Positions 26,031 through 41,905 of a DNA stretch of 64,000 bases are shown here, piece by piece; position 1 is the first letter of the stretch, and every line of letters begins with the position of its first letter. Source of the stretch: Capsulimonadaceae bacterium (lineage in GTDB: Bacteria > Armatimonadota > Armatimonadia > Armatimonadales > Capsulimonadaceae); the NCBI GenBank assembly GCA_036504535.1, contig DASXUY010000022.1:5650-69649 (forward strand), in the 5' to 3' direction. Under the pieces are notes generated by a model. That model searched no databases. It saw nothing but the letters and a program-made list of their open reading frames with translations, and was not told the origin of the DNA. The translations under genes were made by a program, and so were the position numbers.

Positions 26031-26257
26031 CTCTGACTCCCCCTCGTCCTTATCTTAGGAGAGGGGGCGGGGGGTGAGGTATTTGCCCAAATTGGGGTGG
26101 CGCGCCGGGCATTTGTAGGGGCAGAGCTTGTCTCCGCCCTCCGACAGCAACGGCAAGCAAGCGGGACATATAGCCACTGTCCGGCCGCTTCTGACTCCCC
26201 TTCTCCTTATCCTAGGAGAAGGGGTCGGGGCTTGAGCTAGTCTTCTGGCCAGTTGAG
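26031..26257. repeat. Family of hairpin repeats (CCCCTTCTCC-ttatccta-GGAGAAGGGG type); two copies here and a third at 50108-50157.
   Basis: 26031-26078 tctgactccccctcgtccttatcttaggagagggggcgggg. 26189-26257 tctgactccccttctccttatcctaggagaaggggtcggggcttgagctagtcttctggccag. 50108-50157 gtccttatcttagggggctgggcttgagcctgtccgctggccag. Confidence 0.55.
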
Positions 26258-26265
26258 GTATTCCC

Positions 26266-27273: not shown

Positions 27274-27537
27274 ACGAGAATCTCCTTGGATGTGTACTGA
27301 AAAATGTGAAGCTTGCCAACGAGTTCGCCACATCTAACGAATGGACCTGCTAATCGCGAGACATTTTCGCGGTACCTGGCTGGCTATTTCTACGGGGGGA
27401 AAGGTGACGTCAAACTTATGTTGCGGTCCGCAACAAAGTTGTCCCAGTGCCCTGGGCATTCTTATGCCGGGTACTTTCAAGCACTTCGCAGCCGTATGTT
27501 TCAACATACGGAAGGGCTTAGGCCCTCGCCCCCACAC

Positions 27538-28371
27538 CTACACCAGGTGGTGGACCATGTTCTGCGTGAAGTGGGTCATCACCGCAAGAACGAGGCAAAC
27601 GATCAGGATATAGTTGGCCCGAATGCCGCGCTCCATCGCCGTAGCGTGGACATACAGGTAGACACCCAGCGACAGCCACGTAAGCACCGAAAGCGCCGTG
27701 TGCATGTCGGCGATGGGGAGTTGTCGAGACACCGCCGTGATGATGCCAGCCGCGAGGCCGATTGTCAGAAGTGGGAACGCGAGCGAGACAAGACTGAACG
27801 ACAGCCCATCAAGTGTCGAAAGAGGCGGCAGCCTTGAAAACAGGCCGCCAACCACCTTCTTTTGCTTCAACAGCCTGTGTTCGAACAAGTAGATAAGCGC
27901 GCAGCCGACAGCGAGGAAAAGCAGGGCGAACGAAAACAGGAACGCCATCACGTGCAGGCTGATCACAGCGCTGTCCATGCCCATCGACGCTTCCGGTCGA
28001 TGCGGCAGGCTGGCGTGGATCACCGATCCCGTGAACACCGACAAAAAGCTGAGCCCGAATGCCAGAGAGCCAAGGGCGAGCGGAGGCCGTTCACGCATAA
28101 AAGCTTCGACGACCAGGTACGCCAGCGCTAGCGACCACCCTGTCGCAGCGATCAGGTCCACAGGCGTCGCGAACGGCGTGTGGTGGTTCTGCACGCAACT
28201 GATCCCAATCGCCGACGTGTGCAAGAACACGCCAACCAGTCCGCACACACGCGCCGTCGTCTGCCATGCGGCGCGATTCGCTGACGGTGCCTCGATCACC
28301 AGCTTGCCGTAAAATACCGCCGCAAGCAGGTAGCCGATCGCAGCCATGATGGTTTCCAAACCGCCGTTCAT
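27538..28371 (-). CDS. HemX-like, CcsA-family integral membrane protein (cytochrome c assembly family) downstream of hemA.
   Basis: Polytopic membrane protein of 277 aa. Its start overlaps the hemA stop by 4 nt (ATGA). The arrangement is the same as in Bacillus hemA-hemX. Confidence 0.6.
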   Translation of the reverse strand: MNGGLETIMAAIGYLLAAVFYGKLVIEAPSANRAAWQTTARVCGLVGVFLHTSAIGISCVQNHHTPFATPVDLIAATGWSLALAYLVVEAFMRERPPLALGSLAFGLSFLSVFTGSVIHASLPHRPEASMGMDSAVISLHVMAFLFSFALLFLAVGCALIYLFEHRLLKQKKVVGGLFSRLPPLSTLDGLSFSLVSLAFPLLTIGLAAGIITAVSRQLPIADMHTALSVLTWLSLGVYLYVHATAMERGIRANYILIVCLVLAVMTHFTQNMVHHLV

Positions 28372-29696
28372 TGGTGGATACCCTTCTCGATCGCGTCCTC
28401 TTCCAACCCGAATGCCGCGCGTATCGCGTCCAGCCGCTCGTAAGTCGACTCGCCGTCGCCGCCTGCGCTGCGCTTAATCGCGACCGTGGCCGAGTGCGCC
28501 ACCTTGTTGGCGTAGGCCTGCATGCTCGCCTCGACCGCCTTCATGTCGCGCTCCGAAAGGTGAGGGAACTTGGCCCGTAGCTTGGCCATCTCTTCCAGCC
28601 GCAGCGACTCCAGCCGCTGCCGGACCGCCACAACTAGTGGCGCCACTTCAAGCGACCGCCACCACGTCAAAAACTCGGTCACAGCGTGGTCGACGACGAC
28701 CTGCGCCTTCCCGATCTCCGCCGACCGCCCAGCCCTTGCTTCGGCGACCACCTGCTCAAGATCGTCAATGTTGAACAGATACACATTATCCATATCCCCG
28801 ACCGCCGACTCAACATCTCGGGGGACGGCAATGTCAATCAAGAACAGGGCACGGTTCCGACGCCCTTTCATCGCAGTTCGCACGAGGTCGCGGGTGACGA
28901 CGGGGTGCGGGGCTGCGGTGGAACAGATGACGATGTCAGATGACACTAATAAGCTGGGAAGCTCATCGAAGCTGCGCGCCTCGGCACCAGCGCCAAGCTG
29001 CTCGGCCAGTTGCTGAGCGCGCTCGAACGTGCGGTTGGCCACAAACACCGATGGGGTCCCGCGCGCCTGCAAGTGGCGTGCAGTGAGATCGCTCATCTTG
29101 CCCGCGCCAAGGATCAGCACCTTGTGCGACGCCAGCGAGTCGCCGAAGATCTGCCGCGCCAGCTCCACCGCCGCCGAGCCGATGCTGAATGCCCCCCGGC
29201 TAATCTCGGTATCGGTACGGACGCGTTTGCCGGCAGCAAGCGCGCTCTGTATCAAAGAGTTGAGGATCGCGCCGACGGAGCCTGCGGCTTGGGCAGCCGC
29301 ATATGCCGCCTTCACTTGAGCCAAAATCTGATACTCGCCGAGCACCATCGAGTCAAGCCCCGATGTCACATTCATCAGGTGATTCGCCGCAGCACCGTCG
29401 CGATACGTGTACGTGTGCCCCTCAATCAGGGGGCGCGCAATCCCGTGGAGCCCGACCAGAAAGCCGATCAGCTCGTCCTCGCCAAACGCTTCCCGGTCCG
29501 ATAGCGGGGCAGCGTCCTCGACCACACAGTAGATCTCCGTACGGTTGCACGTCGACAGTAGTACCGCCTCGCGGACACCGTCCATTGCTGTCAGCGAGCT
29601 AAGGCACGACGGTAGCGTGTGCTCAGGGATGACGACCCGCTCACGCACCTCGACAGGTGCGCTGGTATGGTTCACGCCAAATGCGATCAGATGCAA
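28368..29696 (-). CDS. hemA: Glutamyl-tRNA reductase.
   Basis: MHLIAFGVNHTSAPVEVRE...LSTCNRTEIY signature, an NADP-binding domain and a dimerisation helix. TTG start. Confidence 0.92.
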   Translation of the reverse strand: MHLIAFGVNHTSAPVEVRERVVIPEHTLPSCLSSLTAMDGVREAVLLSTCNRTEIYCVVEDAAPLSDREAFGEDELIGFLVGLHGIARPLIEGHTYTYRDGAAANHLMNVTSGLDSMVLGEYQILAQVKAAYAAAQAAGSVGAILNSLIQSALAAGKRVRTDTEISRGAFSIGSAAVELARQIFGDSLASHKVLILGAGKMSDLTARHLQARGTPSVFVANRTFERAQQLAEQLGAGAEARSFDELPSLLVSSDIVICSTAAPHPVVTRDLVRTAMKGRRNRALFLIDIAVPRDVESAVGDMDNVYLFNIDDLEQVVAEARAGRSAEIGKAQVVVDHAVTEFLTWWRSLEVAPLVVAVRQRLESLRLEEMAKLRAKFPHLSERDMKAVEASMQAYANKVAHSATVAIKRSAGGDGESTYERLDAIRAAFGLEEDAIEKGIHQ

Positions 29697-30107
29697 GACA
29701 AACCAGCCGTTTCGGACCCATCTTCCACGCGATCAACAGTGATCGGCGTGTCGTTACTCCACTCGCGGGCGGCAGGCGCGCGCTCCGAGCAAGGCTTGTT
29801 GTGAATCGAGTAATACATGGAATCGTTATCTTATTATGGGGTAGGTCCGCTCAGAAGTCAACCAACGCGCAAATCTGAACGCCAGTACGCCATTTGCACC
29901 CTGAATCAGAGTACATTACGATTCTTTGGGAGGTGAATGCAACTATATTGGCGCAATTGGTTCTAACACATTGAGGCGTATTCGGTCAATGAGACGCAAT
30001 CGCGAACGATTATCAACCGATATCGAAGCACGTCTTGCGGACTTCAGCCGACTCTTACTTAGCCGTCTGCGGCTAGACAAGCGTCCCTGAGACACGCTGG
30101 TTAAAGG

Positions 30108-30893
30108 ATGAGTGTAATGAACGGAGTCAACGACCTGACGACGTGGCAGTATTTGATCTTCGAGCTACCGCTTGCTGCTGGCGCATTCATGATCATCATG
30201 ACAGTCGTGCATCCACACGGTGATCATGGTGATGGACACGGGGCCGATGCAGGGCACGGTGACATGGGGCACGGAGATGCTGGCCACGGGCACGTTGGGA
30301 TTACCGATGCCGGGCACGGGCACGACATCGGGCATTCGCATCCGGGGCATGTGCACATCGATCACGCCGCGCATCCTCCGCATGGCCCGGGGCACGGTCA
30401 CGCTCACGGCCACGCGGCGAGCCATGGCAGAGACGTGGGCGGGTTTATCCTTGGGCTATTCGGTGCCCGGAAAGCGCCGCTGCCATTGGTGCTCGAAGCT
30501 GGGCTGCTTGGCTGGGGCGTGTTCGGCTTCTGCGCCAACATGTTCTTCCAGGTCGGCGCTTCGCCATCGGCGTTGCTGGCTATGCCTGCAATAGCCGTCG
30601 CCGCAGTCGGCGGTTTTGCCACGATGCATATTGCAGGTGCCACATTCGCCCGCTTTATGCCGGAGGATGAGTCGTCGGCGTTGAGCCGAAACTCCTTGTT
30701 CGGAATAGCTGGGGAGGTCGTCTACCCGGTCAGCGAAACTGGTGGCCGCATCCACGTTTACGACCCGTACGGCACGATGCACGACGAATCGTGCCGCGTT
30801 GCCGCAGGGCAGCAGACCATCGAACGGGGCCGTCGGGCAATGGTTGTCGATATCGACGCCAAAGGCACTCTCATTGTAGAAGAGGCGCCATAG
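30108..30893 (+). CDS. NfeD-like membrane protein with an extremely His-rich low-complexity segment; upstream partner of a flotillin.
   Basis: N-terminal transmembrane helix. A ~70-aa segment with ~27 His (HGDHGDGHGADAGHGDMGHGDAGHGH...GHGHAHGH). Membrane region, then a C-terminal NfeD-type beta-barrel (GEVVYPVSETGGRIHV...GRRAMVVDIDAKGTLIVEE). The real start may be the ATG at 30117. Confidence 0.65.
   Translation: MSVMNGVNDLTTWQYLIFELPLAAGAFMIIMTVVHPHGDHGDGHGADAGHGDMGHGDAGHGHVGITDAGHGHDIGHSHPGHVHIDHAAHPPHGPGHGHAHGHAASHGRDVGGFILGLFGARKAPLPLVLEAGLLGWGVFGFCANMFFQVGASPSALLAMPAIAVAAVGGFATMHIAGATFARFMPEDESSALSRNSLFGIAGEVVYPVSETGGRIHVYDPYGTMHDESCRVAAGQQTIERGRRAMVVDIDAKGTLIVEEAP
30205..30420 (+). repeat. 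Imperfect short tandem repeats (ggncacggnga...) encoding the His/Gly/Asp-rich region.
   Basis: Reiterated GGGCACGG/GGACACGG units read directly in the sequence. Confidence 0.6.
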
Positions 30894-30958
30894 CGAGCGC
30901 TTACTAATCATCGCTAGCTGTCGGCGGAACAGCCGCCGACACGGGAAAGAGGCATATC

Positions 30959-32977
30959 ATGTTCGCAGTGTCGCTTATAATTGTAGGTTTGCTACTCATT
31001 TTTGCTCCCATAGGAGCGAGTGCCATGACTGGCGCTCACAATATCCTGGGAACGCTCATTTGTATGATTTCTGGTCTTGCCCTTGCGCTCGTCGGGCTTG
31101 TTGTCGCCGTCTGGCAGGCGTGGTATCGACGCACCAGCGCTGACCAGGCGTTCGTCCGCACAGGCAAGGGCGGAAGTCGCGTTGTGCTCGATGGCGGCAC
31201 ACTTGTTGTACCGATGTTCCACCGGGTCATCGAGATCAACCTCAAGACCATGAAACTTGGCGTCAACCCGCGAGGCGCTAATGCGCTGATCACCCGCGAT
31301 AACCTTCGCGCCAACGTCCTTGCACAGTTCTATATTCGAGTTGCCGCCGACGAGGAGCATATCCTCAACGCTGCCCGCTCGCTTGGCGAAAACAGCGTTA
31401 ATGCGGAAGCTGTCGAGGCGCTCGTTAGCGAAAAGCTCGTGTCGGCCCTCCGCGCAATCGCATCGCAAATGGACCTTTTCGAGATCCATACGAAGCGCGA
31501 CGAGTTCGCGGAAAAGGTCAAAGAGCATGTCAAGTCCGACCTTGAGGCGAACGGCTTGTTACTGGAGTCGGTCACCATCTCCGAACTCGACCAAACGGAT
31601 CCGTCCGAGCTGAGCGACAACAACGTGTTCGACGCGCAAGGTAAGCGCAAGATCACCGAGATTACGGCAGCTGCGGCAATCGAGCGCAATAATCTGGAGC
31701 GCGACGCGGAACGTGCCCGAAAGATCAAGGACGTCGATACGCGGCAGCAAGTGCTCGCCCTTGAGCGCCAGCAGGCTGAGGCCGAGGCGTCGCAGGCAAC
31801 AGAAATCGCCAAAGTACGGGCCGATAAAGAGCGCGAGGCGCAGGAGGCCGTCATCACCCAGCAGCGGCAGGTTGAATTGGCCAAGATCGAGAAAGAGCGC
31901 CAGGTGCAGGCGCAGGAGATCGCCCGCGAGCAGGCCATCGAAGTAGCACGCACGCAGCAAGAGCAAGCCGTTCAAGCCGCCCAGGTCCAGCGCGACGGCG
32001 CCATTCAAATGGCAAATGTCGAGCGCGAGAAGTCCGTCGCCGTTGCGGATCGCCAGCGAGAGATTGCGCTCGCCGAACAGGAGATGGCGCGAGCCAAGGC
32101 CGAAGAGGCCGCACTTAACGCCAGTGCTGAGCGAGAAAAGGCAGGCCAGCAGGTCACGACAGTCACGCAGCTCGCAGAGGCAGACCGAGAGGCGAGCAAG
32201 AAGATCATCGCCGCCAAGCAGGAGATCGAGCAAGGACGACTGCGCCAGCAAACAGCCGCTGACATCGAGGCCTATACAAAGGTGAAGCAAGCCGAGGCCG
32301 AACGAGAAGCGGCGACCAAGCAGGCGGAGGCGAAACTGCAACTCGCACAGGCTGAATCAGCGTCTATGGAGCAGATCTCGAAGGGCCAAAACGCGCTCCA
32401 AATGGTTGCGGTCAACGTAGCCCGAGAGCAGGTCAACGTCGAGCAGGCCAAGGTCGCCGTGGAACGCCAGCAGCTTGAGAACCGGCAAGAGTTCGCCGAG
32501 GCTGGCATCCAGCTTGAGATCCAGCGCCTGACCATCCAGGCCGGCCGAGATGTCCAGATGGAGTTCGCAAGGTCGCTGGCGGCGTTCCTCAGCAACGGCC
32601 ACATGACCCTCTACGGCACACCGGAAACCGCGACGACTATGCTCGACAATATGTCGAAAGGCTTCGCGGCAAGGTCCCTCGTCGACGGCTTCATCAGCGG
32701 CCCCGCGTCGAACGGATCTTCCGGTGACGGCCTATCAACCCTGCTTTCCGGCATGGGGAGCATTTTGCAGCCGATGATCGACAAGGCATCAGGAGGCACA
32801 AAACTGTCGCCGGACGCTGCGGCGGACCTAGCACGCAACCTTGCAAACAACCCCGTGTTCCTTGCGGTGCTCAACGAGGCTGTTCAGAAAGCACCCTCGG
32901 AATCGCCCGCCACAGCCGCGCCGGCAGCCGAACCCAAGGCAGCCGCCGCCGACGGAGCAAGCGCCAAACGCAAATAA
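30959..32977 (+). CDS. Flotillin-like SPFH/band-7 protein (FloT/YuaG-like) with a long coiled-coil.
   Basis: N-terminal transmembrane segment. SPFH domain. An EA/QA-rich coiled-coil (EAEASQATEIAKVRADKEREAQEAVITQQRQVELAKIEKERQ...). Follows an NfeD gene, as in yuaF-floT. Confidence 0.8.
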   Translation: MFAVSLIIVGLLLIFAPIGASAMTGAHNILGTLICMISGLALALVGLVVAVWQAWYRRTSADQAFVRTGKGGSRVVLDGGTLVVPMFHRVIEINLKTMKLGVNPRGANALITRDNLRANVLAQFYIRVAADEEHILNAARSLGENSVNAEAVEALVSEKLVSALRAIASQMDLFEIHTKRDEFAEKVKEHVKSDLEANGLLLESVTISELDQTDPSELSDNNVFDAQGKRKITEITAAAAIERNNLERDAERARKIKDVDTRQQVLALERQQAEAEASQATEIAKVRADKEREAQEAVITQQRQVELAKIEKERQVQAQEIAREQAIEVARTQQEQAVQAAQVQRDGAIQMANVEREKSVAVADRQREIALAEQEMARAKAEEAALNASAEREKAGQQVTTVTQLAEADREASKKIIAAKQEIEQGRLRQQTAADIEAYTKVKQAEAEREAATKQAEAKLQLAQAESASMEQISKGQNALQMVAVNVAREQVNVEQAKVAVERQQLENRQEFAEAGIQLEIQRLTIQAGRDVQMEFARSLAAFLSNGHMTLYGTPETATTMLDNMSKGFAARSLVDGFISGPASNGSSGDGLSTLLSGMGSILQPMIDKASGGTKLSPDAAADLARNLANNPVFLAVLNEAVQKAPSESPATAAPAAEPKAAAADGASAKRK

Positions 32978-33007
32978 GCCATTGCAGCCAATCAATTTGG
33001 CACGATC

Positions 33008-33040
33008 TAGGCCCGCCATCGGCAACGCTGGCGGGCTTAG
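33008..33040 (+). terminator. Possible terminator hairpin after the flotillin gene.
   Basis: GCCCGCCA-tcggcaacgc-TGGCGGGC followed by ttaggcatt. The U-tract is weak. Confidence 0.3.
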
Positions 33041-33209
33041 GCATTAGTACAACCAACAAATCCATCACTCTCACCCTCGCCAAACCCACTCCACACCCCG
33101 TCCCCCACCGCGAAGCGATCCAAAAAAGGCCCGCCCGGCCTGAGAGGGCTCCTACCATCTCTCCCCCTCACACGCAGGATTCACCATCAAAAACGAGTAA
33201 CATTCTCAC

Positions 33210-33929
33210 GTGGACGCAACCGTACTCCAACATTTTGCTCCGTTCACCCTATCGTCGGCCTGCTATGCCGCCGGATACAGCGTCGGGCTGGGCGCGTTCG
33301 CGTGGATGGCGCATCGGCGGCGGTTGTGGACGTCGGGGATGATCCGCCTGATGGCGGCGGGGCTGATCGGCGGCCTCGTTTTCGCCAATCTCGCCCAGCT
33401 TATCTTCGCTCACGAGCCTGGCAAGTCGGTCTTGGGGGCGCTAGCGGGTGGGTATCTCGTGGTCGCGATCTACAAACGCCGCCTCGGCATCCGACGCGCG
33501 ACTGGCGACCTCTTCGCTGTGGCGCTCTCGGCTGGGGAGGCTGTGGGGCGGTTTGGCTGCCTTTTCGGCGGCTGCTGCTACGGCCGCGCAACGGCTATGC
33601 CGTGGGCCATCGCGCAGCACGGAGCCATGCGCCACCCCACGCAGCTTTACCTTGCGGCGGCAAGCGCAGCTATTCTAGCGGTTCTGCTTGTGCTGGAGCG
33701 GCGACGCCCGCCGGAGAATACGCTGTTCTATGTGCAAGGTGTTCTCTATTGCACCGCCCGTTTTACCATCGAGTTCTTCCGTGACACCAGCACCCTCGCC
33801 CTGGGGCTGACGTCGGCGCAATGGGCCTGCATCGCTGGCGTCGCCTTCTTCGGCACGATGCTCGCTCGGCTGCGTCAAGTGGAGGCAGCGCGGGCAGGAG
33901 GGACTGCGTCGGAGGCGGCGACAGCATGA
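33210..33929 (+). CDS. lgt: Prolipoprotein diacylglyceryl transferase (Lgt) family.
   Basis: Polytopic membrane protein. GRFGCLFGGCCYGR...PWAI...RHPTQLYL matches the Lgt signature region (GRxGxFxNxE / HPTQLYE); this is a Cys-containing variant. GTG start. The TGA overlaps the ATG of the next gene. Confidence 0.65.
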   Translation: MDATVLQHFAPFTLSSACYAAGYSVGLGAFAWMAHRRRLWTSGMIRLMAAGLIGGLVFANLAQLIFAHEPGKSVLGALAGGYLVVAIYKRRLGIRRATGDLFAVALSAGEAVGRFGCLFGGCCYGRATAMPWAIAQHGAMRHPTQLYLAAASAAILAVLLVLERRRPPENTLFYVQGVLYCTARFTIEFFRDTSTLALGLTSAQWACIAGVAFFGTMLARLRQVEAARAGGTASEAATA

Positions 33930-34342
33930 TGCGATGTTCGAACTGCAATGCCGAGGTATTCAACAATAAGACTGTGTGCCCAAACTGCGGCAATAACGTT
34001 CCGACAGCCACACCAACGCCTTTTACCGACGACCTACCGGCAATTACGAACTCGCAACGCCTGCCAGATCGCGAGGCATATTTTGCGGGGGTGTGGTTAG
34101 CCATCTTCACTGTTATTCTCGCCAGTATCGTAACGATGGCAACAGGAGCGTGGCCGCTGTTCTTTGCTGGTCCGATATCAGCGTTACTGCTCTCCTTTCG
34201 CCAGCGGGCAAGTTCTCCAGATAATGCACGTGGATTGATCATGGGTCTTGTTTATTGCTTTGGCGGCGTCGCGACACTTTACCTGGGGGCACTTGCTTTG
34301 TGTAGAGTCGCCGCACTGTATCTGGTGATGCTCGCGCAATAA
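33926..34342 (+). CDS. Zinc-ribbon membrane protein, array member 1 of 14.
   Basis: MMRCSNCNAEVFNNKTVCPNCGNNV, then transmembrane helices, then ...DNARGLIMG... and a C-terminal LALC. The ATG overlaps the lgt stop (ATGA). Confidence 0.7.
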   Translation: MMRCSNCNAEVFNNKTVCPNCGNNVPTATPTPFTDDLPAITNSQRLPDREAYFAGVWLAIFTVILASIVTMATGAWPLFFAGPISALLLSFRQRASSPDNARGLIMGLVYCFGGVATLYLGALALCRVAALYLVMLAQ

Positions 34343-34365
34343 GGCGTTGCGGGAGTTCGGTGATC

Positions 34366-34926
34366 ATGGTTATCAAATGCCCTAACTGTGCGAGCAACAT
34401 TTCCGAGGATACAATCATCTGTCCGGAATGCGGCTACAAGCCCATGACGGATTTGTCGCTGGAAGTCAGTGGGGAATCACAGGAACCGATTGGTTGCGTG
34501 CAACCTGCCAAATGCCCAAACTGTGCCGCTAGCATACCAGAGGGTGCGATCCTGTGCCCGGAATGCGGCTACGATACCAAGACCATTTGGCCGCCGTCCC
34601 CAAGAGGTCGATTCGCCTCGCCAGCGGCGACAACTGGTGCCGAAAAGCGTGCTCGTGCAGGCGGCGTTGTGGTCTCGGTAGCGGTTCTCGTGCTTTTCGG
34701 CGTCGTTTCGTCACAGCTAGGCTACGGTCCGATTGTCTTTTTGGGCCCTTTAGCGGTGCTGGCGATATCATCATTAACAAGCGAGCACTACCCACAATTC
34801 GCTGTGGGGCTTCGTATCACTCTCAAGTTTGTACGTGGAGCGATAATCATCGTGGTCCTGGGCGCCCTCGGCGCGTTTTCAATATGCGTATGTTTTTGGC
34901 TGTTGGAGGCGCTATTTCATCGATGA
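34366..34926 (+). CDS. Zinc-ribbon membrane protein, array member 2 (duplicated zinc ribbon).
   Basis: MVIKCPNCASNISEDTIICPECGY followed by a second ribbon KCPNCAASIPEGAILCPECGY, then 2-3 transmembrane helices. GGGAG ribosome-binding site. Confidence 0.7.
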   Translation: MVIKCPNCASNISEDTIICPECGYKPMTDLSLEVSGESQEPIGCVQPAKCPNCAASIPEGAILCPECGYDTKTIWPPSPRGRFASPAATTGAEKRARAGGVVVSVAVLVLFGVVSSQLGYGPIVFLGPLAVLAISSLTSEHYPQFAVGLRITLKFVRGAIIIVVLGALGAFSICVCFWLLEALFHR

Positions 34927-35321
34927 CCGCCAAATGCCCACACTGTGCTGCCGACATACCGGGGCGCCCCACGCTGTGTCCGAACTGCGGTCACAAGATC
35001 ACGGCGGCGTGGACCCAGCGTTTAGGGCTTATGCCGCTCAATATGGACGCCGATCTGCGTCCCTTTTTTGCCGGAATTAGGGCGCCCATTTTACTTGTAG
35101 TTCTATTCACCTGGCTCGCGTTCCAGTTCAACGACTGGGAGCTAGGGTTTGGCGGCCCGGCGACAGCGCTCACAGCTGCTGCGGCGTTGTGGTGGAAGCA
35201 CCGTCAACTTTCGCGCGGCCTCGGCATGGGCATCATGTGGATATTGGCGACAATCGGCGTGATATTCCTCGGCGCTCTGGTGATCTGCGGCGTTGAGACG
35301 GCGATTGGGGCGAACAAGTGA
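34923..35321 (+). CDS. Zinc-ribbon membrane protein, array member 3.
   Basis: MTAKCPHCAADIPGRPTLCPNCGH, transmembrane helices, RQLSRGLGMG, C-terminal LVICGV. The ATG overlaps the previous stop (ATGA). Confidence 0.7.
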   Translation: MTAKCPHCAADIPGRPTLCPNCGHKITAAWTQRLGLMPLNMDADLRPFFAGIRAPILLVVLFTWLAFQFNDWELGFGGPATALTAAAALWWKHRQLSRGLGMGIMWILATIGVIFLGALVICGVETAIGANK

Positions 35322-35328
35322 GACGGCA

Positions 35329-35718
35329 ATGACAACCAAATGCCCTAACTGCGCTACTGGCATCTGCGGTGACGAAAAGATGTGCCCGAACTGTGGCAAG
35401 CTCGTGCTGATTCAAGCCGTTGGGTCGTCTGGCACGAGAAGCTCTCTCGGCGCAATCGGCTGCTTTCAAGCCTTTATTTTGGTGTTGATTGCTATGTTGG
35501 CGATTGATCGTATTGCCAACATAGCATGGGAGAGGAAGTCATTTCTCGTGTATGCCGTCGGCTCTCTTGCCGTTTTGGCAGCGATCGTCGCCGCAAAGGC
35601 ACGGTTGCCGCGCTTCGCAAGTAATGTCCTTGTTGTTGTGCTTGTCTTCACCTTGATCGTCGCGATGATGGGCTTGGGAGCATTCGTGGCCTGTTGGGGA
35701 CCGGGGAACGGCTTATGA
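35329..35718 (+). CDS. Zinc-ribbon membrane protein, array member 4.
   Basis: MTTKCPNCATGICGDEKMCPNCGK, transmembrane helices, KARLPRFASN, C-terminal FVACWG. Confidence 0.7.
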   Translation: MTTKCPNCATGICGDEKMCPNCGKLVLIQAVGSSGTRSSLGAIGCFQAFILVLIAMLAIDRIANIAWERKSFLVYAVGSLAVLAAIVAAKARLPRFASNVLVVVLVFTLIVAMMGLGAFVACWGPGNGL

Positions 35719-36116
35719 CCATCAAATGCCCAAACTGCGCTACTAGCATCTCCAATGACGTGGCCCTGTGTCCGGAATGCGGCTGCGAAATCGCGGTGGA
35801 TGCGTCGGCTGTCAAGAACGAGATGGCTACACCATCGGGGAAAAGTGTTCCGCCAATCTGGTACCGCACGCCAGCCGCGATTTACATCTGGATAGGTGGT
35901 TTAGGTATGGTGTTTATAATCGCTGCTCTTCAGCGGACATTGGCGTCATTCTTCTGTGGCCTGACCTTATACTTCGTGGTTGCTACGGTCGCGATCTGGA
36001 AGGCGCCCCGTAGTCCAAAACGGACCATAGACTTGGTCTTGTTACTGTTGTTGATGGCAACTCTGATTTGCCTAAGTGGTTTCTTTACTTGCTGTGCTGT
36101 GATTTCGAAGGACTGA
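35715..36116 (+). CDS. Zinc-ribbon membrane protein, array member 5.
   Basis: MTIKCPNCATSISNDVALCPECGC, three transmembrane helices, KAPRSPKR, C-terminal FFTCCAV. ATGA overlap with the previous gene. Confidence 0.7.
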   Translation: MTIKCPNCATSISNDVALCPECGCEIAVDASAVKNEMATPSGKSVPPIWYRTPAAIYIWIGGLGMVFIIAALQRTLASFFCGLTLYFVVATVAIWKAPRSPKRTIDLVLLLLLMATLICLSGFFTCCAVISKD

Positions 36117-36124
36117 GCGGCTCA

Positions 36125-36532
36125 ATGACAACCAAATGCGCGAACTGTGGCGAGCCGCTCTCTAGCGACGATAAGCTATGCCCGAACTGCGGGGCGGCAC
36201 TGGGCGAGATGTGGCCGCCGCCGCCCTCGTCTCGGGGCGACGAGCTTCCGGGCCCAGCTAGAAGCTTGCCACCGTGGCTTCAGTGCTTGATAGGCGTCTT
36301 TATTGTCTTCGCTCTTTCTACTGGACTGGCGTTGGTAGCGAGAGAAGCTAAGCTGTTCTCCGTTTATGCGGTCGGTGTTGGGCTTCTTCTACTGGTCGCG
36401 ATTATAGCCGTTCGAAACTCACCTGGATTCAAAAAGAACTCAGTGGCCGTAGCCGCTCTCTTCCTCGGTGGGTCGCTGGTCGTATTCTGGAATGGCTTAA
36501 TAACGTGCTACGGTATTTTTCGGCACAGATAA
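36125..36532 (+). CDS. Zinc-ribbon membrane protein, array member 6.
   Basis: MTTKCANCGEPLSSDDKLCPNCGA, transmembrane helices, RNSPGFKKN, C-terminal LITCYG. Confidence 0.7.
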   Translation: MTTKCANCGEPLSSDDKLCPNCGAALGEMWPPPPSSRGDELPGPARSLPPWLQCLIGVFIVFALSTGLALVAREAKLFSVYAVGVGLLLLVAIIAVRNSPGFKKNSVAVAALFLGGSLVVFWNGLITCYGIFRHR

Positions 36533-36537
36533 ACGCT

Positions 36538-36927
36538 ATGACCATCAAATGCCCAAACTGCGCTAGCGCCATTCCCGAGGACACGGCACTGTGTCCGGAA
36601 TGTGGCTACGAGCACGTCGCCGACTGGCCGCACGTTACGATGGGCGAAGCATATGGTCCGCTTGGCTGCCTTCAGACATTCTTGGTTGTGTTCGCAACGT
36701 TGCTCGCGATCGCAGGGGTCGGCTATATCGCGGCGGAGAAGAGCTCGCTCATCGTATATATCATCGGGGCGGCGTGCGTTGTGCTGGCAAGTGCCCTCGC
36801 AACCCGTCGGTTACCGCGAATAATGAAGAACACCCAGGCACTTCTGTTCGTGATCATTGTAATTGGGGTTATGACCTGGTTTGGCGCTTTCGTGACATGT
36901 TCTAGGTCGATGGGGCCCGTATGGTAA
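36538..36927 (+). CDS. Zinc-ribbon membrane protein, array member 7.
   Basis: MTIKCPNCASAIPEDTALCPECGY, transmembrane helices, RRLPRIMKN, C-terminal FVTCSR. Confidence 0.7.
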   Translation: MTIKCPNCASAIPEDTALCPECGYEHVADWPHVTMGEAYGPLGCLQTFLVVFATLLAIAGVGYIAAEKSSLIVYIIGAACVVLASALATRRLPRIMKNTQALLFVIIVIGVMTWFGAFVTCSRSMGPVW

Positions 36928-37322
36928 CCAAATGCCCAAACTGCGCCGCGACGCTTACTGGCGACGAAACCTTGTGCCCGAACTGCGGACACGAGATCGC
37001 TAGCGCATGGCCGCCCCCGCTCGCCGAAGAGCTGCCGGATATGCCCAAGTTCCCGCCGCAACGCGATACGCAGGCGTATAATGCTGGCGGCTTAGCATCA
37101 CTTGGTCTCGTGTTCCTATCGCTTTACCTTGCGTCGGTTACTGGAAAGTGGCTGGTCATCTGTGTGGGCCCAATCATCGCGTTCTTGTGTGCTGCGTACC
37201 AATGGAATAGATATCGCGACCTGGCACGCGGGCTGATCATGGGCGTCGTCATCTTTTACGGAGGCGTCGCGGTACTCTGGCTGGGACTGCTTGCTATTTG
37301 TAGCTGGGGTACATACCGATGA
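36921..37322 (+). CDS. Zinc-ribbon membrane protein, array member 8 (nearly identical to member 9).
   Basis: MVTKCPNCAATLTGDETLCPNCGH...NRYRDLARGLIMG...LAICSW. Overlaps the previous gene by 7 nt (ATGGTAA). Confidence 0.75.
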   Translation: MVTKCPNCAATLTGDETLCPNCGHEIASAWPPPLAEELPDMPKFPPQRDTQAYNAGGLASLGLVFLSLYLASVTGKWLVICVGPIIAFLCAAYQWNRYRDLARGLIMGVVIFYGGVAVLWLGLLAICSWGTYR

Positions 37323-37723
37323 CACCCAACTGCCCAAACTGTACCGCGAAGCTTATCGGCGACCAAACCCTGTGCCCGAACTGCGGACACGAGATCGCTA
37401 GCGCATGGCCGCCCCCGCTTGCCGAAGAGCTGCCGGATATGCCCAAGTTCCCGCCGCAACGCGATACGCAGGCGTATAATGCTGGCGGCTTAGCATCACT
37501 CGGTCTCGTGTTCCTATCGCTTTACCTTGCGTCGGTTTCCGGAAAGTGGCCGGTAATTCTGGTTGGCCCCATCATCTCATTCTTGTGTGCCGCGCACCAA
37601 TGGAATAGATATCGTGATCTCGCACGCGGCCTGATCATGGGCGTCGTCCTCTTTTACGGCGGCGTCGCGGTACTCTGGCTTGGACTCCTTGTTATTTGTA
37701 GTAATATGGCAGGATACCGATGA
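37319..37723 (+). CDS. Zinc-ribbon membrane protein, array member 9 (recent tandem duplicate of member 8).
   Basis: MTPNCPNCTAKLIGDQTLCPNCGH. About 90% identical to member 8 at nucleotide and protein level. ATGA overlap. Confidence 0.75.
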   Translation: MTPNCPNCTAKLIGDQTLCPNCGHEIASAWPPPLAEELPDMPKFPPQRDTQAYNAGGLASLGLVFLSLYLASVSGKWPVILVGPIISFLCAAHQWNRYRDLARGLIMGVVLFYGGVAVLWLGLLVICSNMAGYR

Positions 37724-38136
37724 CACCCACATGCCCAAACTGCTCTGCGACGCTTACCGGTGCCGAGACCCTGTGTCCGGAATGCGGGTTCTCGCTACTG
37801 GGTGTCTGGCCGCCGCCGCCCGACACAGTACCGGCACCAGCGCCGAAGCGCACATGGCGCGAACGGCGTCCGTATATTCTCGGCAACGTGGCCGGCATCG
37901 CGATCATTCTAGGGTCCATATTCCTCACCGGTTTTATCGATGCTTGGTGGCTATTCCTCGTGGGAATTGGACTCTCTGGGATCATCGGTCGGTTAATTCA
38001 ACCTCGCGCACCTGAATTCGGGCGGGGTATGTCCATCAGCCCGCTATACTTTGTCCTCATCGTCGCCGTTCTGATCCTCGGCGCACTCGCCACCTGCTTC
38101 GTGGGCCTGCTGTTTAGCCGCGCTCATTCGCCGTAA
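37720..38136 (+). CDS. Zinc-ribbon membrane protein, array member 10.
   Basis: MTPTCPNCSATLTGAETLCPECGF...RAPEFGRGMSISP...LATCFV. ATGA overlap. Confidence 0.7.
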   Translation: MTPTCPNCSATLTGAETLCPECGFSLLGVWPPPPDTVPAPAPKRTWRERRPYILGNVAGIAIILGSIFLTGFIDAWWLFLVGIGLSGIIGRLIQPRAPEFGRGMSISPLYFVLIVAVLILGALATCFVGLLFSRAHSP

Positions 38137-38152
38137 ATGAAACAGAGTCGCC

Positions 38153-38542
38153 ATGCCCAACGTATGCAAAAACTGTGGAGCCGAGCAAACCGGAACGTCA
38201 ACGGTCTGCCTGAACTGCGGAGTGAGTGTTGCGCCGCTGACGCCGCAAGTCCAGACCTTGATGATAGGCAGGCGTCGCGACCCGTATTTAGGGTTCATAC
38301 TCTCTGTATTGGGCCCGCTTGGCGTGGCGGCGATATGCCTGAGCTTTTGGCCGTCGTATACTATTTTTGCGTGGATCGTATCTATCATCGGGACGCATGG
38401 GATTGGCGATGCCATAAAAGAGAAGTGGCCCCTTTTCGGCGGTGCCCTAAAGCGGGGCATCGAATTACAGTTCACAGTACTGGTCGTACTTGTCCTTGGA
38501 GGCTTGGCCATTTGCGCCGGAGCAGCGCGTCAAGGTGCTTGA
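38153..38542 (+). CDS. Zinc-ribbon membrane protein, array member 11.
   Basis: MPNVCKNCGAEQTGTSTVCLNCGV, then transmembrane helices, C-terminal LAICAG. Confidence 0.65.
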   Translation: MPNVCKNCGAEQTGTSTVCLNCGVSVAPLTPQVQTLMIGRRRDPYLGFILSVLGPLGVAAICLSFWPSYTIFAWIVSIIGTHGIGDAIKEKWPLFGGALKRGIELQFTVLVVLVLGGLAICAGAARQGA

Positions 38543-38599
38543 ACGTCCGAAGCACAATCTGTGTGCTATTCGTTTGGGCGGTAGGGAGCGTAAAGTGCT

Positions 38600-38962
38600 A
38601 TGACCTACATATGCAAAAACTGCGACTCCGAGCTAACCGAAACGTCGAACGTCTGCCCAAACTGCGGCGAGCCCGTCGCGCGGAAGCCGACGTGGCACGA
38701 GCGGCGTTTGTATATTGGCGGCATCATTACGGGACTCGTTATAATAATTGGGACAATATTTATCACGTCTACGCTTACCTCTACGCGGGCATTTATAGTC
38801 CCCGCTGCAATGGCGGCGTTTGTTGGAGTGGCCATTCTAAGCACCTCGTTTCAGTTTCGGTCCCCGGAATTCGGGCGCGGCCTTCGAATCAGCCCTGCGT
38901 ATTTTTTCGTTGTTGTAGCGGTAATGCTTCTTGGTCTATTCGTCGTATGCCTCGCTGAATGA
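38600..38962 (+). CDS. Zinc-ribbon membrane protein, array member 12.
   Basis: MTYICKNCDSELTETSNVCPNCGE...RSPEFGRGLRISP...FVVCLAE. Confidence 0.7.
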   Translation: MTYICKNCDSELTETSNVCPNCGEPVARKPTWHERRLYIGGIITGLVIIIGTIFITSTLTSTRAFIVPAAMAAFVGVAILSTSFQFRSPEFGRGLRISPAYFFVVVAVMLLGLFVVCLAE

Positions 38963-38983
38963 TGAACCGAAACCGATTTACCG

Positions 38984-39415
38984 ATGACATACACCTGCAA
39001 AAACTGTGGAGATGAGCTAACCGAAACATCGATCGTCTGCCCGAACTGCGGCGAGCGTGTCGTCACGCACTGGCCCCCGTTCATCATGCAGGATGACGCG
39101 CCCGAGCCCGAGACCGAGCCCCAGCCAAAGCCGCTCATTCGGCGCGGCGACAAAGCGGTGGGCTTCGCCTTGTCGTGCATCCCAGCGCCGGTTACGATCC
39201 TCGTGGAGCGCCTGCTTCCGAACGTCGGCGCGACGGCAGCGCTTCTTGGCTATGGACTTGTGATTGTTGCAGCGAGCAGTATTCAGTATCGCAGACCAGA
39301 CGTTTTCGCGGGCATGGTGCGCGGACTCAAACTACAGCTACTCGTAGCAGCATTGCTCATGCTGGGGTCAATATATACTTGCTTTACTACCGGCCCTTAT
39401 AGCCAACGCCAATAA
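38984..39415 (+). CDS. Zinc-ribbon membrane protein, array member 13.
   Basis: MTYTCKNCGDELTETSIVCPNCGE...RRPDVFAGMVRGLKLQ...IYTCFT. Confidence 0.7.
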   Translation: MTYTCKNCGDELTETSIVCPNCGERVVTHWPPFIMQDDAPEPETEPQPKPLIRRGDKAVGFALSCIPAPVTILVERLLPNVGATAALLGYGLVIVAASSIQYRRPDVFAGMVRGLKLQLLVAALLMLGSIYTCFTTGPYSQRQ

Positions 39416-39491
39416 TCTTTACGTTTGTTCGAGTGCTACCGGGGTTGGCTAAGGGAGTCGCATACCTTTGCGGCCCGCAAGAACGAAAACA

Positions 39492-39869
39492 ATGAACACT
39501 ACGTGCAAGAATTGCAATAAGCCGATCAGTGACGACGACATCAAATGTCCATCCTGTGGCCATGTGCCCCCCGAGCCGTGCACCAAGGGCCAGTCACCGG
39601 GGATGGCCCTTGGAATGATAGGCGGGATAGGGGCCACACTTGTGTTGGCATTCATGGGTAGCATTTTAATCTATTGTGGCTTGTTCATAGCGGTCCCGGT
39701 TTGGCTTGGTTGTCTTTTTGCACTCGACTCACACGCGGTTAAGGTTTCCGCACGGACGCCAGGGTTTGCGCGAGGGTTGCGGCTAGGAATCCGTCTGCAA
39801 ATTCTCGGATTTATGGTGTTGATTATCGAAACCACCATCAAGCTTCACAACTGGTATGGAGTGCAATGA
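39492..39869 (+). CDS. Zinc-ribbon membrane protein, array member 14.
   Basis: MNTTCKNCNKPISDDDIKCPSCGH...RTPGFARGLRLG. An alternative upstream start exists at 39468. Confidence 0.65.
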   Translation: MNTTCKNCNKPISDDDIKCPSCGHVPPEPCTKGQSPGMALGMIGGIGATLVLAFMGSILIYCGLFIAVPVWLGCLFALDSHAVKVSARTPGFARGLRLGIRLQILGFMVLIIETTIKLHNWYGVQ

Positions 39870-39913
39870 AAATCACCCGATGCTCCCTGCTCGCCAACCC
39901 ATCGCCCCGCCTC

Positions 39914-39989
39914 CTAGCGGCGAAGCCGTTCAAGGGTGCAGCGTCACGCTGCCGCCAGCCGCGTAGGCTACCCCTGCGGCGAGCAGTCC
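39914..39989. repeat. Dispersed ~70-bp structured repeat, copy 2.
   Basis: ctagcggcgaagccgttcaagggtGCAGCGtcacGCTGCcgccagccgcgtaggctacccctgcggcgagcagtcc. Confidence 0.6.
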
Positions 39990-40034
39990 TAAACCGTTAC
40001 CTTACAACCGACACCATACCCTGAACACCAAACC

Positions 40035-41441
40035 ATGACCCAACCCGCCGCGATCACCGATCCCTGGACCGAAGACACCGCCAGCCTGTGCCCGACATGC
40101 CTTGCGCACGTCCCGGCGCGCATTGCGGTCGACGGCGGCGGAGTCTGGATCACGAAGCGCTGCCCCGCGCACGGCGAATCCAGCGCGCTGCTGGCTAGCG
40201 ACGCCACCGAGTACTTGCGCCTGCGCCAGTTTGTCCCGGACCGCAGCGGAGCGAACTGCTGCTGCGGACCCGGCGACTCGTGCACCGGCGCGCCTCCCGT
40301 GTGTGTCCTGCTGCTGGAGATCACGCAAGCCTGTAACCTGCGCTGCCCAACATGCTACGCCGACGCGCACGGGCACGAGTTTATGACCGTCGACGAAGCT
40401 CGGCGGCGACTCGATTCGTTCTTCGTAAAGCAGCCAGTGCTCGATGTGCTCATGATCAGCGGCGGCGAGCCCACCATCCACCCCCAGTTTCGCGAGATCC
40501 TCGACCTCGCGCTGTCGTACCCGATCAACCGTGTGCTCATCAACACCAACGGCCTCCGCCTTGTCCAGAGCGACACTGTGCTCGATGCCATCGCCGCGCA
40601 CCGAAACCGCGTCGAGCTGTTCCTGTCGTTCGCCAGCTTCCGCGCCGACGTCCACGAGCGGCTCTACGGCCGTGACCTGCGAACCGAAAAGACCGCCGCC
40701 GTCGATCGAGCGCGTGACGCCGGACTCTTCACGACCATCGTGCCGACAATCGAACGCGGCGTCAACGACGACGAGATCGGCGACCTTTACCGGTTCGCCC
40801 TGTCCCGCGACAACATCAACGGCATCAACTTCCAGCCCGTCATGAGCGCGGGGCGCTACGATCACGGATACGATCCCGCCGGGCGCATGACCCTCACCGA
40901 CGTGATCGCCGCCCTTGAGTCGCAAACCAACGGCCACCTCATCCGCACCGATTTCGTCGGCCTGCCGTGCTCGCATCCCGACTGCTGCGCACTCACATAC
41001 GGCTTTCTCGACGCTGCCCGCACCCGAATCGCTCCGCTCCCGCGATCGCTCGACGTTGCCCGGTACATGGACCTGTTCACGGACCGCATCAGCTTCTCGG
41101 GTCTCGTCGGCGGGGCGTTGCGACGCGTCTGGAGCGACATGGCGCATATGCGAGCAGCGCAAACCCTGCGCGACCTCGGGACCCTCTTCGCCACCGCTGG
41201 CATACGCGACGTGCTCCCACTTATCGGTCGCCCGGAAGAGTTTGGCAAACGTGTCCTGCGTATCGTCGTCAAGCCGTTTATGGACGCGCACACGTACGAC
41301 CAGCATCGTGTTGAGCAGTGCTGCACGAAGATCATCGACGAGACGGGTCAGCCCGTCTCGTTCTGCGAATACAACGTTCTGCGCCGCGGGGTAACGCTCC
41401 CGGCGCGCCGTGGCTCCGTGCCGTTGTCGGTCGTCGGGTAG
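40035..41441 (+). CDS. Radical SAM enzyme with an N-terminal Cys/His-rich (zinc-ribbon/rubredoxin-like) extension and a C-terminal Cys cluster.
   Basis: CNLRCPTCY (CxxxCxxC) plus the GGEPTIHPQF SAM-binding motif. N-terminal LCPTC...(22)...CPAHG and CCCGPGDSC. C-terminal CSHPDCC and QCCTKIIDETGQPVSFC. Confidence 0.8.
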   Translation: MTQPAAITDPWTEDTASLCPTCLAHVPARIAVDGGGVWITKRCPAHGESSALLASDATEYLRLRQFVPDRSGANCCCGPGDSCTGAPPVCVLLLEITQACNLRCPTCYADAHGHEFMTVDEARRRLDSFFVKQPVLDVLMISGGEPTIHPQFREILDLALSYPINRVLINTNGLRLVQSDTVLDAIAAHRNRVELFLSFASFRADVHERLYGRDLRTEKTAAVDRARDAGLFTTIVPTIERGVNDDEIGDLYRFALSRDNINGINFQPVMSAGRYDHGYDPAGRMTLTDVIAALESQTNGHLIRTDFVGLPCSHPDCCALTYGFLDAARTRIAPLPRSLDVARYMDLFTDRISFSGLVGGALRRVWSDMAHMRAAQTLRDLGTLFATAGIRDVLPLIGRPEEFGKRVLRIVVKPFMDAHTYDQHRVEQCCTKIIDETGQPVSFCEYNVLRRGVTLPARRGSVPLSVVG

Positions 41442-41623: not shown

Positions 41624-41905
41624 ATGAGCGAATTCGATAGACAAGAACAGGGTCGACGGTATGAGGGGTGGGCGTTTACGTACTGCAAAGCGGCGCTGCT
41701 GGTGCTTATCTTCCAGCGTTACTCGCTCATCGCCCTATCAGCGCTCTCGGTGATCTTCTACCTCGCCGCCGCCGCGAAGGGCGTTGACAAGTACCGCTGC
41801 TTCGTCAAGCCGCCCTGGGTCACCATCGCCTGGACCATCGTCCTCATCGCCCAGCTTTACGCCATCCACATCCACGGTTGGCCCCCATGGCGGCTGATCG
41901 GGTAG
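41624..41905 (+). CDS. Small (93 aa) two-transmembrane-helix membrane protein of unknown function.
   Basis: GGGGGAG ribosome-binding site before the ATG. Two hydrophobic helices (AALLVLIFQRYSLIALSALSVIFYLAAAA; VTIAWTIVLIAQLYAI). Confidence 0.4.
   Translation: MSEFDRQEQGRRYEGWAFTYCKAALLVLIFQRYSLIALSALSVIFYLAAAAKGVDKYRCFVKPPWVTIAWTIVLIAQLYAIHIHGWPPWRLIG

Follow-up and report, generated by a model that had tools for sequence, protein, structure and literature searches.

Two kinds of described enzymes stand close to the locus considered here. The first is Lgt, the prolipoprotein diacylglyceryl transferase, whose substrates are prolipoproteins with a lipobox cysteine. Mutagenesis of the E. coli enzyme identified N146 and H103 as essential; enzymes with a cysteine in place of N146 have been termed 'distantly related Lgt', and in the Lgt of Leptospira a pair of cysteines at N146/W153 is proposed to form a disulfide (PMC13251419). 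Enzymes of the N146C type, such as MSMEG_5408 of M. smegmatis and the Lgt of Leptospira interrogans, are discussed as weak or alternative housekeeping enzymes, and neither a radical SAM partner nor a dedicated client encoded nearby has been described for them (PMC13251419). The second kind is the radical SAM enzyme Tes, or GDGT-MAS, the tetraether lipid synthase of archaea. Homologues of Tes are known from bacteria, none of them tested experimentally (PMC8941075; PMC11868695). Members of both kinds are found together in a stretch of 64,000 nucleotides from a Capsulimonadaceae bacterium (assembly GCA_036504535.1, contig DASXUY010000022.1, positions 5,650 to 69,649; in the following the window). 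Here, the genes of a divergent Lgt-family transferase (Lgt-like) and of a Tes-like radical SAM protein enclose 14 small genes, m1 to m14, that encode zinc-ribbon membrane proteins. The 14 genes are, with high confidence, in-paralogs of one small and unnamed membrane-protein family, and comparison with other genomes has shown this family to be a lineage-specific insert in a far more widespread operon of the order Lgt-like, Tes-like and small93, the latter being a membrane protein of 93 residues.

The constituent proteins of the array share a common architecture. All four ribbon cysteines and the glycine that follows (C-x2-C...C-x2-CG) are invariant in 14 of 14 members, with the two CxxC knuckles spaced about 10 residues apart, and all 14 proteins match Zn_ribbon_3 and DZR at E<=1 (the best Pfam zinc-ribbon match has E=2.7e-13; m1 remains under the gathering score). 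An AlphaFold2 model computed from the 14-sequence alignment consists of the ribbon, a disordered proline-rich linker and three helices (predicted local distance difference test score, pLDDT, 81). An N-terminal CxxC...CxxC ribbon followed by transmembrane (TM) helices is likewise found in TcaA-type Zn_ribbon_3/DZR proteins. Unlike TcaA, however, the array members carry no large extracytoplasmic domain, and the domain that harbors their FARGLG loop and LGAxxxC end is without a model: matches in Pfam and NCBIfam are restricted to the ribbon, and no entry of either collection covers the membrane part. That the ribbon might supply electrons to the radical SAM enzyme in the manner of a rubredoxin was considered and set aside, as Pfam assigns the module to the zinc ribbons, with no rubredoxin among the matches listed, and as the knuckles are only about 10 residues apart.

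Outside the ribbon the proteins are highly diverged. The median pairwise identity among members is 30% over the full length and 25% once the ribbon is removed. Even so, BLASTP links the ribbon-stripped membrane domains of 13 of the 14 members at E<1e-3, and a profile of these 13 domains retrieves m14, weakly (E=0.01), as its sole further match among the six-frame open reading frames (ORFs) of the window. Judged from these alignments, the membrane domains are truly homologous despite an identity of about 25%. A word-indexed protein search with the full-family alignment gave self matches only (scoring was limited to the 8000 candidates with the most shared words, a set in which zinc-ribbon words probably prevail), as did the same search with ribbon-less domains and members from outside the window. 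An exhaustive profile search was swamped by multi-ribbon proteins, with approximately 8 true full-length relatives discernible by eye. The consensus over 113 sequences reads CPNCG...CPNCG-WPPxP-LxTGxxxGD-TM1-TM2-LYxxLRxxYPxFARGLGxG-TM3-LGAxxxC-tail, or in short form ribbon-WPPxP-LxTGxxxGD-TM-LRxxYPxFARGLG-TM-LGAΦxxC-short tail, with LRxxYPxFARGLG as a basic loop and the last helix ending in L-G-A-[L/F]-x-x-C.

This ending is the second characteristic of the family. A cysteine terminates the last hydrophobic helix in 66 of 76 family members, including 13 of the 14 array members. Position -3 relative to this cysteine is leucine or phenylalanine in 54 of the 66 proteins, position -2 is most often alanine, and position -1 is occupied by bulky residues (L/I/V/T/W) or by A; a tail of 2-15 residues follows. 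Orthologous subtypes keep tails of their own, for example LGAFFTC[RQ]P[LV][TL]Y or LSLCKPN. Minimal members of the family consist of the ribbon, a single TM helix, the cysteine and the tail, and lack the cytoplasmic loop motif. Since the number of TM helices is always odd (1 or 3), the cysteine is predicted to lie on the membrane side opposite to the ribbon. Lysine and arginine reach a density of 0.23 in loop 2, against 0.11 for loop 1 and 0.10 for the tail, an enrichment that is consistent with an N-in, C-out topology.

The genes themselves are all intact, start with ATG and are located on the forward strand, together spanning 33926-39869 according to the ORF listing and an inspection of start codons. 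Gene lengths range from 363 to 561 bp, corresponding to products of 120-186 aa. The start codon of m1 (33926-34342, 138 aa, ending in LGALALC and a 12-aa tail) overlaps the TGA stop codon of the Lgt-like gene as ATGA. Next are m2 (34366-34926, 186 aa, with two zinc ribbons and the end AFSICVC plus tail), m3 (34923-35321, 132 aa), m4 (35329-35718, 129 aa), m5 (35715-36116, 133 aa), m6 (36125-36532, 135 aa), m7 (36538-36927, 129 aa), m8 (36921-37322, 133 aa), m9 (37319-37723, 134 aa), m10 (37720-38136, 138 aa), m11 (38153-38542, 129 aa), m12 (38600-38962, 120 aa), m13 (38984-39415, 143 aa) and m14 (39492-39869, 125 aa). Overlaps of 4 nt, again of the form ATGA, occur at m2/m3, m4/m5, m8/m9 and m9/m10, the overlap of m7 and m8 measures 7 nt, and the remaining junctions are gaps of 5-76 nt. 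Scans for promoters and terminators found no convincing internal element of either kind in the array, and no Rfam family matches within the window. The most divergent member, m14, retains the ribbon and an RTPGFARGL loop; its terminal cysteine is lost and charged residues are located inside its last helix. It may be degenerating or acquiring a new function.

An independent short-read assembly from Logan (SRR11794808) reproduces positions 26195-37002 of the window with 0 mismatches. The Logan contig stops at the start of the m8/m9 repeat, and hence it is only the copy number of m8/m9 that depends on the metagenome-assembled genome (MAG) alone. The region 34001-40000 has a GC content of 0.556-0.568, below most flanking windows, and an AT skew of -0.08 to -0.16, which may reflect T-rich hydrophobic codons rather than a foreign origin.

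With respect to the history of the array, 12 of the 14 members have their best match within the array, and clustering at 45% identity leaves every member a singleton except m8 and m9. The latter share 87% of their amino acids and about 90% of their nucleotides over 300 nt, and form the only pair unsaturated for an estimate of the ratio of nonsynonymous to synonymous substitution rates (dN/dS). The ratio is 0.28 overall, 0.73 for the ribbon and 0.15 for the central part, with replacements concentrated in the ribbon loop and the tail behind the cysteine. Seen in this comparison, the array is an old, lineage-specific tandem expansion of in-paralogs with one recent duplication (m8/m9), under purifying selection. 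A recent horizontal acquisition was rejected, given that the surrounding cassette is conserved across the phylum and that the best matches of the array are internal.

Much of the original prediction, which had been made from the DNA letters alone, is borne out by these data. It had described fourteen co-directional genes that begin at the lgt stop codon and are coupled among themselves by ATGA and 7-nt overlaps, a shared zinc ribbon (duplicated in m2) with subsequent TM helices, conserved ribbon cysteines, and strong divergence elsewhere. It had also stated that no such family translationally coupled to Lgt was known to it, in agreement with the missing database models and with the literature, in which no published description was found. 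The gene length it gave, about 390-560 bp, compares with the 363-561 bp found. The proposed diversifying evolution of a single module is right as to one family of diverged paralogs; diversifying selection, however, is not shown, the dN/dS of m8 and m9 being the value given above.

The gene to which the array is coupled (33210-33929, forward strand) encodes a protein of 239 aa that matches the LGT family of Pfam (PF01790; 96.1 bits, gathering cut-off 24.9) and has the seven-TM body fold of Lgt. It nevertheless falls short of both NCBIfam equivalogs (TIGR00544, 49.8 versus 118.9 bits; NF000778, 64 versus 334 bits), and its NCBI product name is 'family protein' only. The E. coli signature G142-R143-x-G-N146-x-x-N-x-E151-x-x-G154 corresponds to GRFGCLFGGCCYG in the Lgt-like protein: R143 and G154 are retained, and N146 and E151 are both replaced by cysteine, invariantly so across 16 orthologues. 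At the position of the signature, C117, C122 and C123 are invariant (GCxxxxCCYG motif). Two further segments, YCTARFTIEFFR and HPTQLY, align with the phosphatidylglycerol-binding and gating residues R239, Y235, E243 and R246 and with HPxQLY of E. coli and are invariant among the orthologues. H103 of the H103(Y/W)GGL motif is replaced by leucine, region 121-143 is short and of low model confidence, and most of the head domain is missing. The protein thus differs from Lgt proper in its scores, in N146C and E151C, in lacking H103 and the head domain, and in its operon linkage to a radical SAM gene. It resembles MSMEG_5408 and the Leptospira enzyme (PMC13251419) in N146C and a second cysteine nearby, and departs from them by a third invariant cysteine (CC) and the short head region.

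No second Lgt was found within the 64-kb window. One metagenome contig of our survey (locus L137) carries an Lgt fragment with the canonical signature (RLVNFINDELPG, YPSQIF; 7522-7950, reverse strand) approximately 4 kb from the Tes-linked Lgt-like gene, and therefore the Lgt-like protein is probably a paralog of canonical Lgt. We also note a protein of 1028 aa in the window (2118-5204, reverse strand) that carries a lipoprotein signal peptide of textbook form together with its lipobox (...AVSLAAC); accordingly the organism also makes canonical lipoproteins.

Downstream of the array, the Tes-like gene (40035-41441, forward strand) encodes 468 aa with an N-terminal ribbon of the HMPTM type. The protein matches Radical_SAM (PF04055) and Zn_ribbon_HMPTM (PF23545) in Pfam, contains the CX3CX2C motif as CNLRCPTC, and aligns over its full length (residues 13-453) with archaeal GDGT-MAS (PDB 7TOL, E=9e-49), with which it shares the N-terminal ribbon. 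Unlike Tes and TrsS, it remains under both curated NCBIfam cut-offs (Tes NF045702, 194.9 versus 450 bits; TrsS NF045646, 229.3 versus 490 bits), and it is paired with an Lgt-like protein and, in Armatimonadota, also with the zinc-ribbon family. The last gene of the cassette, small93 (41624-41905, forward strand), has two invariant cysteines (FTFCK, WRCW) at the ends of its helices and no match in Pfam or NCBIfam. Homologues follow the Tes-like gene in most loci of Armatimonadota, Eremiobacterota and Chloroflexia, and do so in UBP7 as well. The protein may be a core subunit or a substrate.

The order of these genes is conserved. An orthologue of the Lgt-like protein (60-73% identity) is commonly encoded in Armatimonadota, and in five genomes, one of them that of the cultured Capsulimonas corticalis with one copy, the Lgt-like gene is followed by 1-3 zinc-ribbon membrane genes, the Tes-like gene and an ORF of about 90 aa. 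Each relative examined has flanking genes of its own, the order of the cassette remains constant, and the overlap of the Lgt-like stop codon and the start codon of the family gene (ATGA) recurs in two of the relatives' loci (L002 and L004). To extend the comparison, the Lgt-like alignment was scanned over 185,579 species genomes and the JGI metagenomes, and the resulting loci were parsed with profiles. The cassette order is borne out by 80 loci each from genomes and from metagenomes. In most of the approximately 160 loci (L008-L167), an N146C Lgt-like gene and a Tes-like gene are adjacent; these loci stem from no fewer than 8 phyla of bacteria (Armatimonadota, Eremiobacterota, Planctomycetota/UBP7, Myxococcota, Chloroflexota, Actinomycetota and Marinimicrobia as well as a Sulfuricurvum and a Clostridia MAG). 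The GRxGC motif with N146C is universal among the Tes-linked Lgt-like proteins, and the cysteine triad is also present in phyla without the zinc-ribbon family. A literature search found no paper that pairs Lgt-type enzymes with Tes homologues.

The zinc-ribbon membrane family, by contrast, occurs only in Armatimonadota and in a small number of Eremiobacterota. Of 58 close loci that remain after removal of redundancy, 10, 27, 17 and 4 have 0, 1, 2 and 3 copies, respectively, in the slot between the two enzyme genes, which makes the 14 copies of the window a unique outlier. As to the lgt-linked arrays that the original prediction had proposed to look for in related genomes, the family and its position recur there, but an array of 14 genes is not the conserved state. 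Its placement of the array next to an Lgt-family gene likewise stands, although the conserved Tes-like partner was missed and the implied housekeeping Lgt is not supported by the scores and substitutions described above.

Several observations concern individual loci. In L005, an extra family member follows small93 (12966-13400, forward strand), with a degenerate C-terminus devoid of the terminal helix and cysteine; the source gene call there is on the opposite strand. In Pirellula MAGs, the Tes-like gene precedes the Lgt-like gene, and further downstream lies a gene for a CxxC...CWLC ribbon protein with about 3 TM helices and the end LFLAC plus 4-8 residues (L057 9222-9869, L058 7919-8440, L060 3483-3992, L061 7852-8481, L065 9161-9652). 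The architecture is alike; homology to the family was not established, with E ~1e-3 when the ribbon is included and nothing when it is removed. Mainly in Acidimicrobiia-type loci, a gene for a methyltransferase of the PEMT/ICMT family (phospholipid or isoprenylcysteine carboxyl) is located directly upstream of the Lgt-like gene (L081 7107-7742; also L063, L076, L077, L079, L080 and L033). It is the only neighbor recovered from a single-linkage clustering of neighboring ORFs across loci, which merged into one component because off-frame ORFs, too, are conserved where DNA is rich in GC. For the Marinimicrobia operon that contains the Lgt-like/Tes-like pair, annotation with Pfam was uninformative. 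In the window, the genes that flank the cassette are hemA/ccsA-like, SPFH/flotillin-like, sirohaem synthase and PntAB genes. Just upstream of the cassette are the SPFH/flotillin-like gene (30959-32977, forward strand; 672 aa, including an extended coiled coil rich in Q, E and A) and a gene without family match (30108-30893, forward strand; 261 aa), neither of which is conserved beside the cassette of the relatives.

We tentatively favor, while granting that it falls short of an even chance, a functional relationship in which the Lgt-like enzyme, to which the array is translationally coupled, has the array proteins as its dedicated clients. Given a cytoplasmic ribbon and TM helices that are odd in number, the conserved cysteine would come to lie at the outer end of the last helix, where Lgt acts. 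The succession of basic loop, last helix and cysteine would then mirror, at the C-terminal end of the protein, the layout of n-region, h-region and lipobox cysteine in a lipoprotein signal peptide. The likeness to Lgt substrates extends to a hydrophobic stretch of about 22 residues, leucine or phenylalanine at -3, frequent alanine at -2 and a predicted outer-face cysteine; because of this signal-peptide-like geometry, the family appears to be the best candidate for an acceptor dedicated to the Lgt-like enzyme. This enzyme retains the phosphatidylglycerol-binding arginines and would alkylate the terminal cysteine with a diacylglyceryl group. The ribbon and two conserved motifs, on the cytoplasmic side, would engage the cytoplasmic Tes-like enzyme, which would act on the lipid tails, and the 14 paralogs would constitute a diversified set of clients that differ most in ribbon surface and post-cysteine tail. 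A copy number that varies is more readily reconciled with clients than with fixed subunits, and the 14-fold amplification is the strongest hint in this direction. A comparable situation is known from arrays of RiPP precursors (ribosomally synthesized and post-translationally modified peptides) and of sortase or exosortase clients, in which small paralogs of variable copy number and with a conserved terminal motif are encoded beside the enzyme. Unlike in these systems, the array members are polytopic, the order of their motif is basic loop, helix and cysteine instead of motif, helix and basic residues, and neither a protease nor a transpeptidase is present in the cassette.

A number of observations weigh against the array proteins being clients. 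Chloroflexota, Actinomycetota, Myxococcota, Marinimicrobia and others possess the Lgt-like/Tes-like pair without the family nearby, so the two enzymes do not depend on it and may act primarily on a lipid or on small93. N146, E151 and H103 are all missing from the Lgt-like protein; since the E. coli enzyme cannot do without N146 and H103, the chemistry of the Lgt-like protein may differ. The terminal motif is not a canonical lipobox: the residue at -1 is bulky instead of G/A/S, the motif is located at the C-terminal end of a protein with one or three TM helices, only 2-15 residues follow, and an N-terminal lipobox signal peptide ([LVI][ASTVI][GAS]C) is absent. Moreover, 10 of the 76 members, including m14, are devoid of the terminal cysteine, some of them truncated at contig ends. 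Finally, most of the conserved motifs are predicted on the cytoplasmic side, and an adaptor of the radical SAM enzyme fits equally.

This last point leads to the rival that survives best. The family might act as a non-substrate adaptor or scaffold that tethers the Tes-like enzyme at the membrane beside the Lgt-like enzyme, or as a regulator of the pair; both enzymes would then act on membrane lipids, for example in producing lipids that span the membrane, and the paralogs would tune activity or localization. We rate this only slightly lower than the client relationship. It draws on the predicted cytoplasmic location of the most conserved motifs outside the ribbon (LxTGxxxGD and LRxxYPxFARGLG), on the many phyla that possess the enzyme pair without the family, as expected for an optional accessory, on the description of Tes homologues as lipid enzymes (PMC8941075), and on the constant location of the family gene between the two enzyme genes, often overlapping both. 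Yet stoichiometric adaptors seldom range from 0 to 14 copies, the strongly conserved cysteine and the tails specific to each subtype, both across the membrane from those motifs, would be left unexplained, and members with a single TM helix lack the cytoplasmic loop motif yet retain helix, cysteine and tail.

The interpretation of the array proteins as clients can be taken one step further, to what may be called a reverse lipobox. In this unlikely elaboration, a dedicated Lgt paralog would add a diacylglyceryl group to the cysteine at the outer end of the last helix of the polytopic proteins, and the Tes-like enzyme, recruited by the ribbon, would couple lipid tails across the bilayer, unless the tail is released as a lipopeptide. 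The product would be a protein-linked, membrane-spanning lipid anchor, with the 14 paralogs as diversified clients.

We consider it improbable that the relevant chemistry is one of thiols, with the outer-face cysteine engaged in a transient disulfide or a thiol relay with the invariant, periplasm-facing cysteine triad of the Lgt-like enzyme (GCxxxxCC) or with the cysteines of small93, such that the array proteins would be redox or assembly cofactors and not lipid acceptors. The invariance of C117, C122 and C123, the two invariant cysteines at the helix ends of small93 and the disulfide proposed for the Leptospira cysteine pair at N146/W153 (PMC13251419) are all in line with such a role. The triad, however, is also present in phyla that lack the family, the cassettes of the five genomes share neither a thioredoxin-like nor a DsbD-like component, and the 14-fold amplification would be unaccounted for.

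A bulky residue at position -1 is unfavorable for signal peptidase II, and this weighs against a further and very improbable scenario, in which the family members are RiPP-like precursors of lipopeptides: the cysteine would be lipidated, a cut of the signal-peptidase-II type would free the tail of 2-15 aa, and the remainder would serve as leader. Tandem precursor-like genes beside a radical SAM enzyme, and a conserved 'leader' with a variable tail beyond a conserved cysteine motif, do resemble such systems. But the radical SAM enzyme is Tes-like and not a peptide maturase with SPASM domain or RiPP recognition element, the tails are conserved within orthologous subtypes and not hypervariable, and the cassettes of the five genomes have neither a protease nor an exporter in common.

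The proposal drawn from the original prediction, namely that diversifying proteins for immunity, exclusion or decoy purposes, or else anti-sigma-like modules, make up the array and work independently of the neighboring enzymes, is already disfavored and hardly credible: although tandem, divergent small membrane proteins, an N-terminal cytoplasmic zinc-binding module as in some anti-sigma factors and the slightly lower GC content of the array would suit it, the slot between the Lgt-like and Tes-like genes is kept in dozens of genomes with unrelated flanks, genes for sigma factors, toxins or mobile elements are not conserved in its vicinity, PADLOC returned only two spurious Cas12a zinc-ribbon matches, the HxxxCxxC motif of zinc-binding anti-sigma factors (ZAS) is absent from the array members, m8 and m9 show the low dN/dS reported above, and the sole match on a viral contig (query m10) covers the ribbon only, with no full-length relative.

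Bacterial Tes homologues are widely put forward as candidate producers of membrane-spanning lipids, the brGDGTs (branched glycerol dialkyl glycerol tetraethers) that serve as palaeoclimate proxies. A clade of these homologues is operon-linked, in at least 8 phyla, to a divergent Lgt-type transferase and a tiny membrane protein with two cysteines, to which the cassette of Armatimonadota adds a new zinc-ribbon membrane family with a lipobox-like terminal cysteine. The cassette thereby provides concrete partner candidates for bacterial Tes homologues, with a one-copy version in the cultured Capsulimonas corticalis, and points to an unstudied system of membrane lipid synthesis or protein lipidation that is built from known kinds of enzymes. 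It may include a second, non-canonical route of protein S-lipidation. Should the reverse lipobox be true, Tes homologues that are assumed to be makers of brGDGT-type lipids would act, in at least some phyla, together with an Lgt-type transferase.

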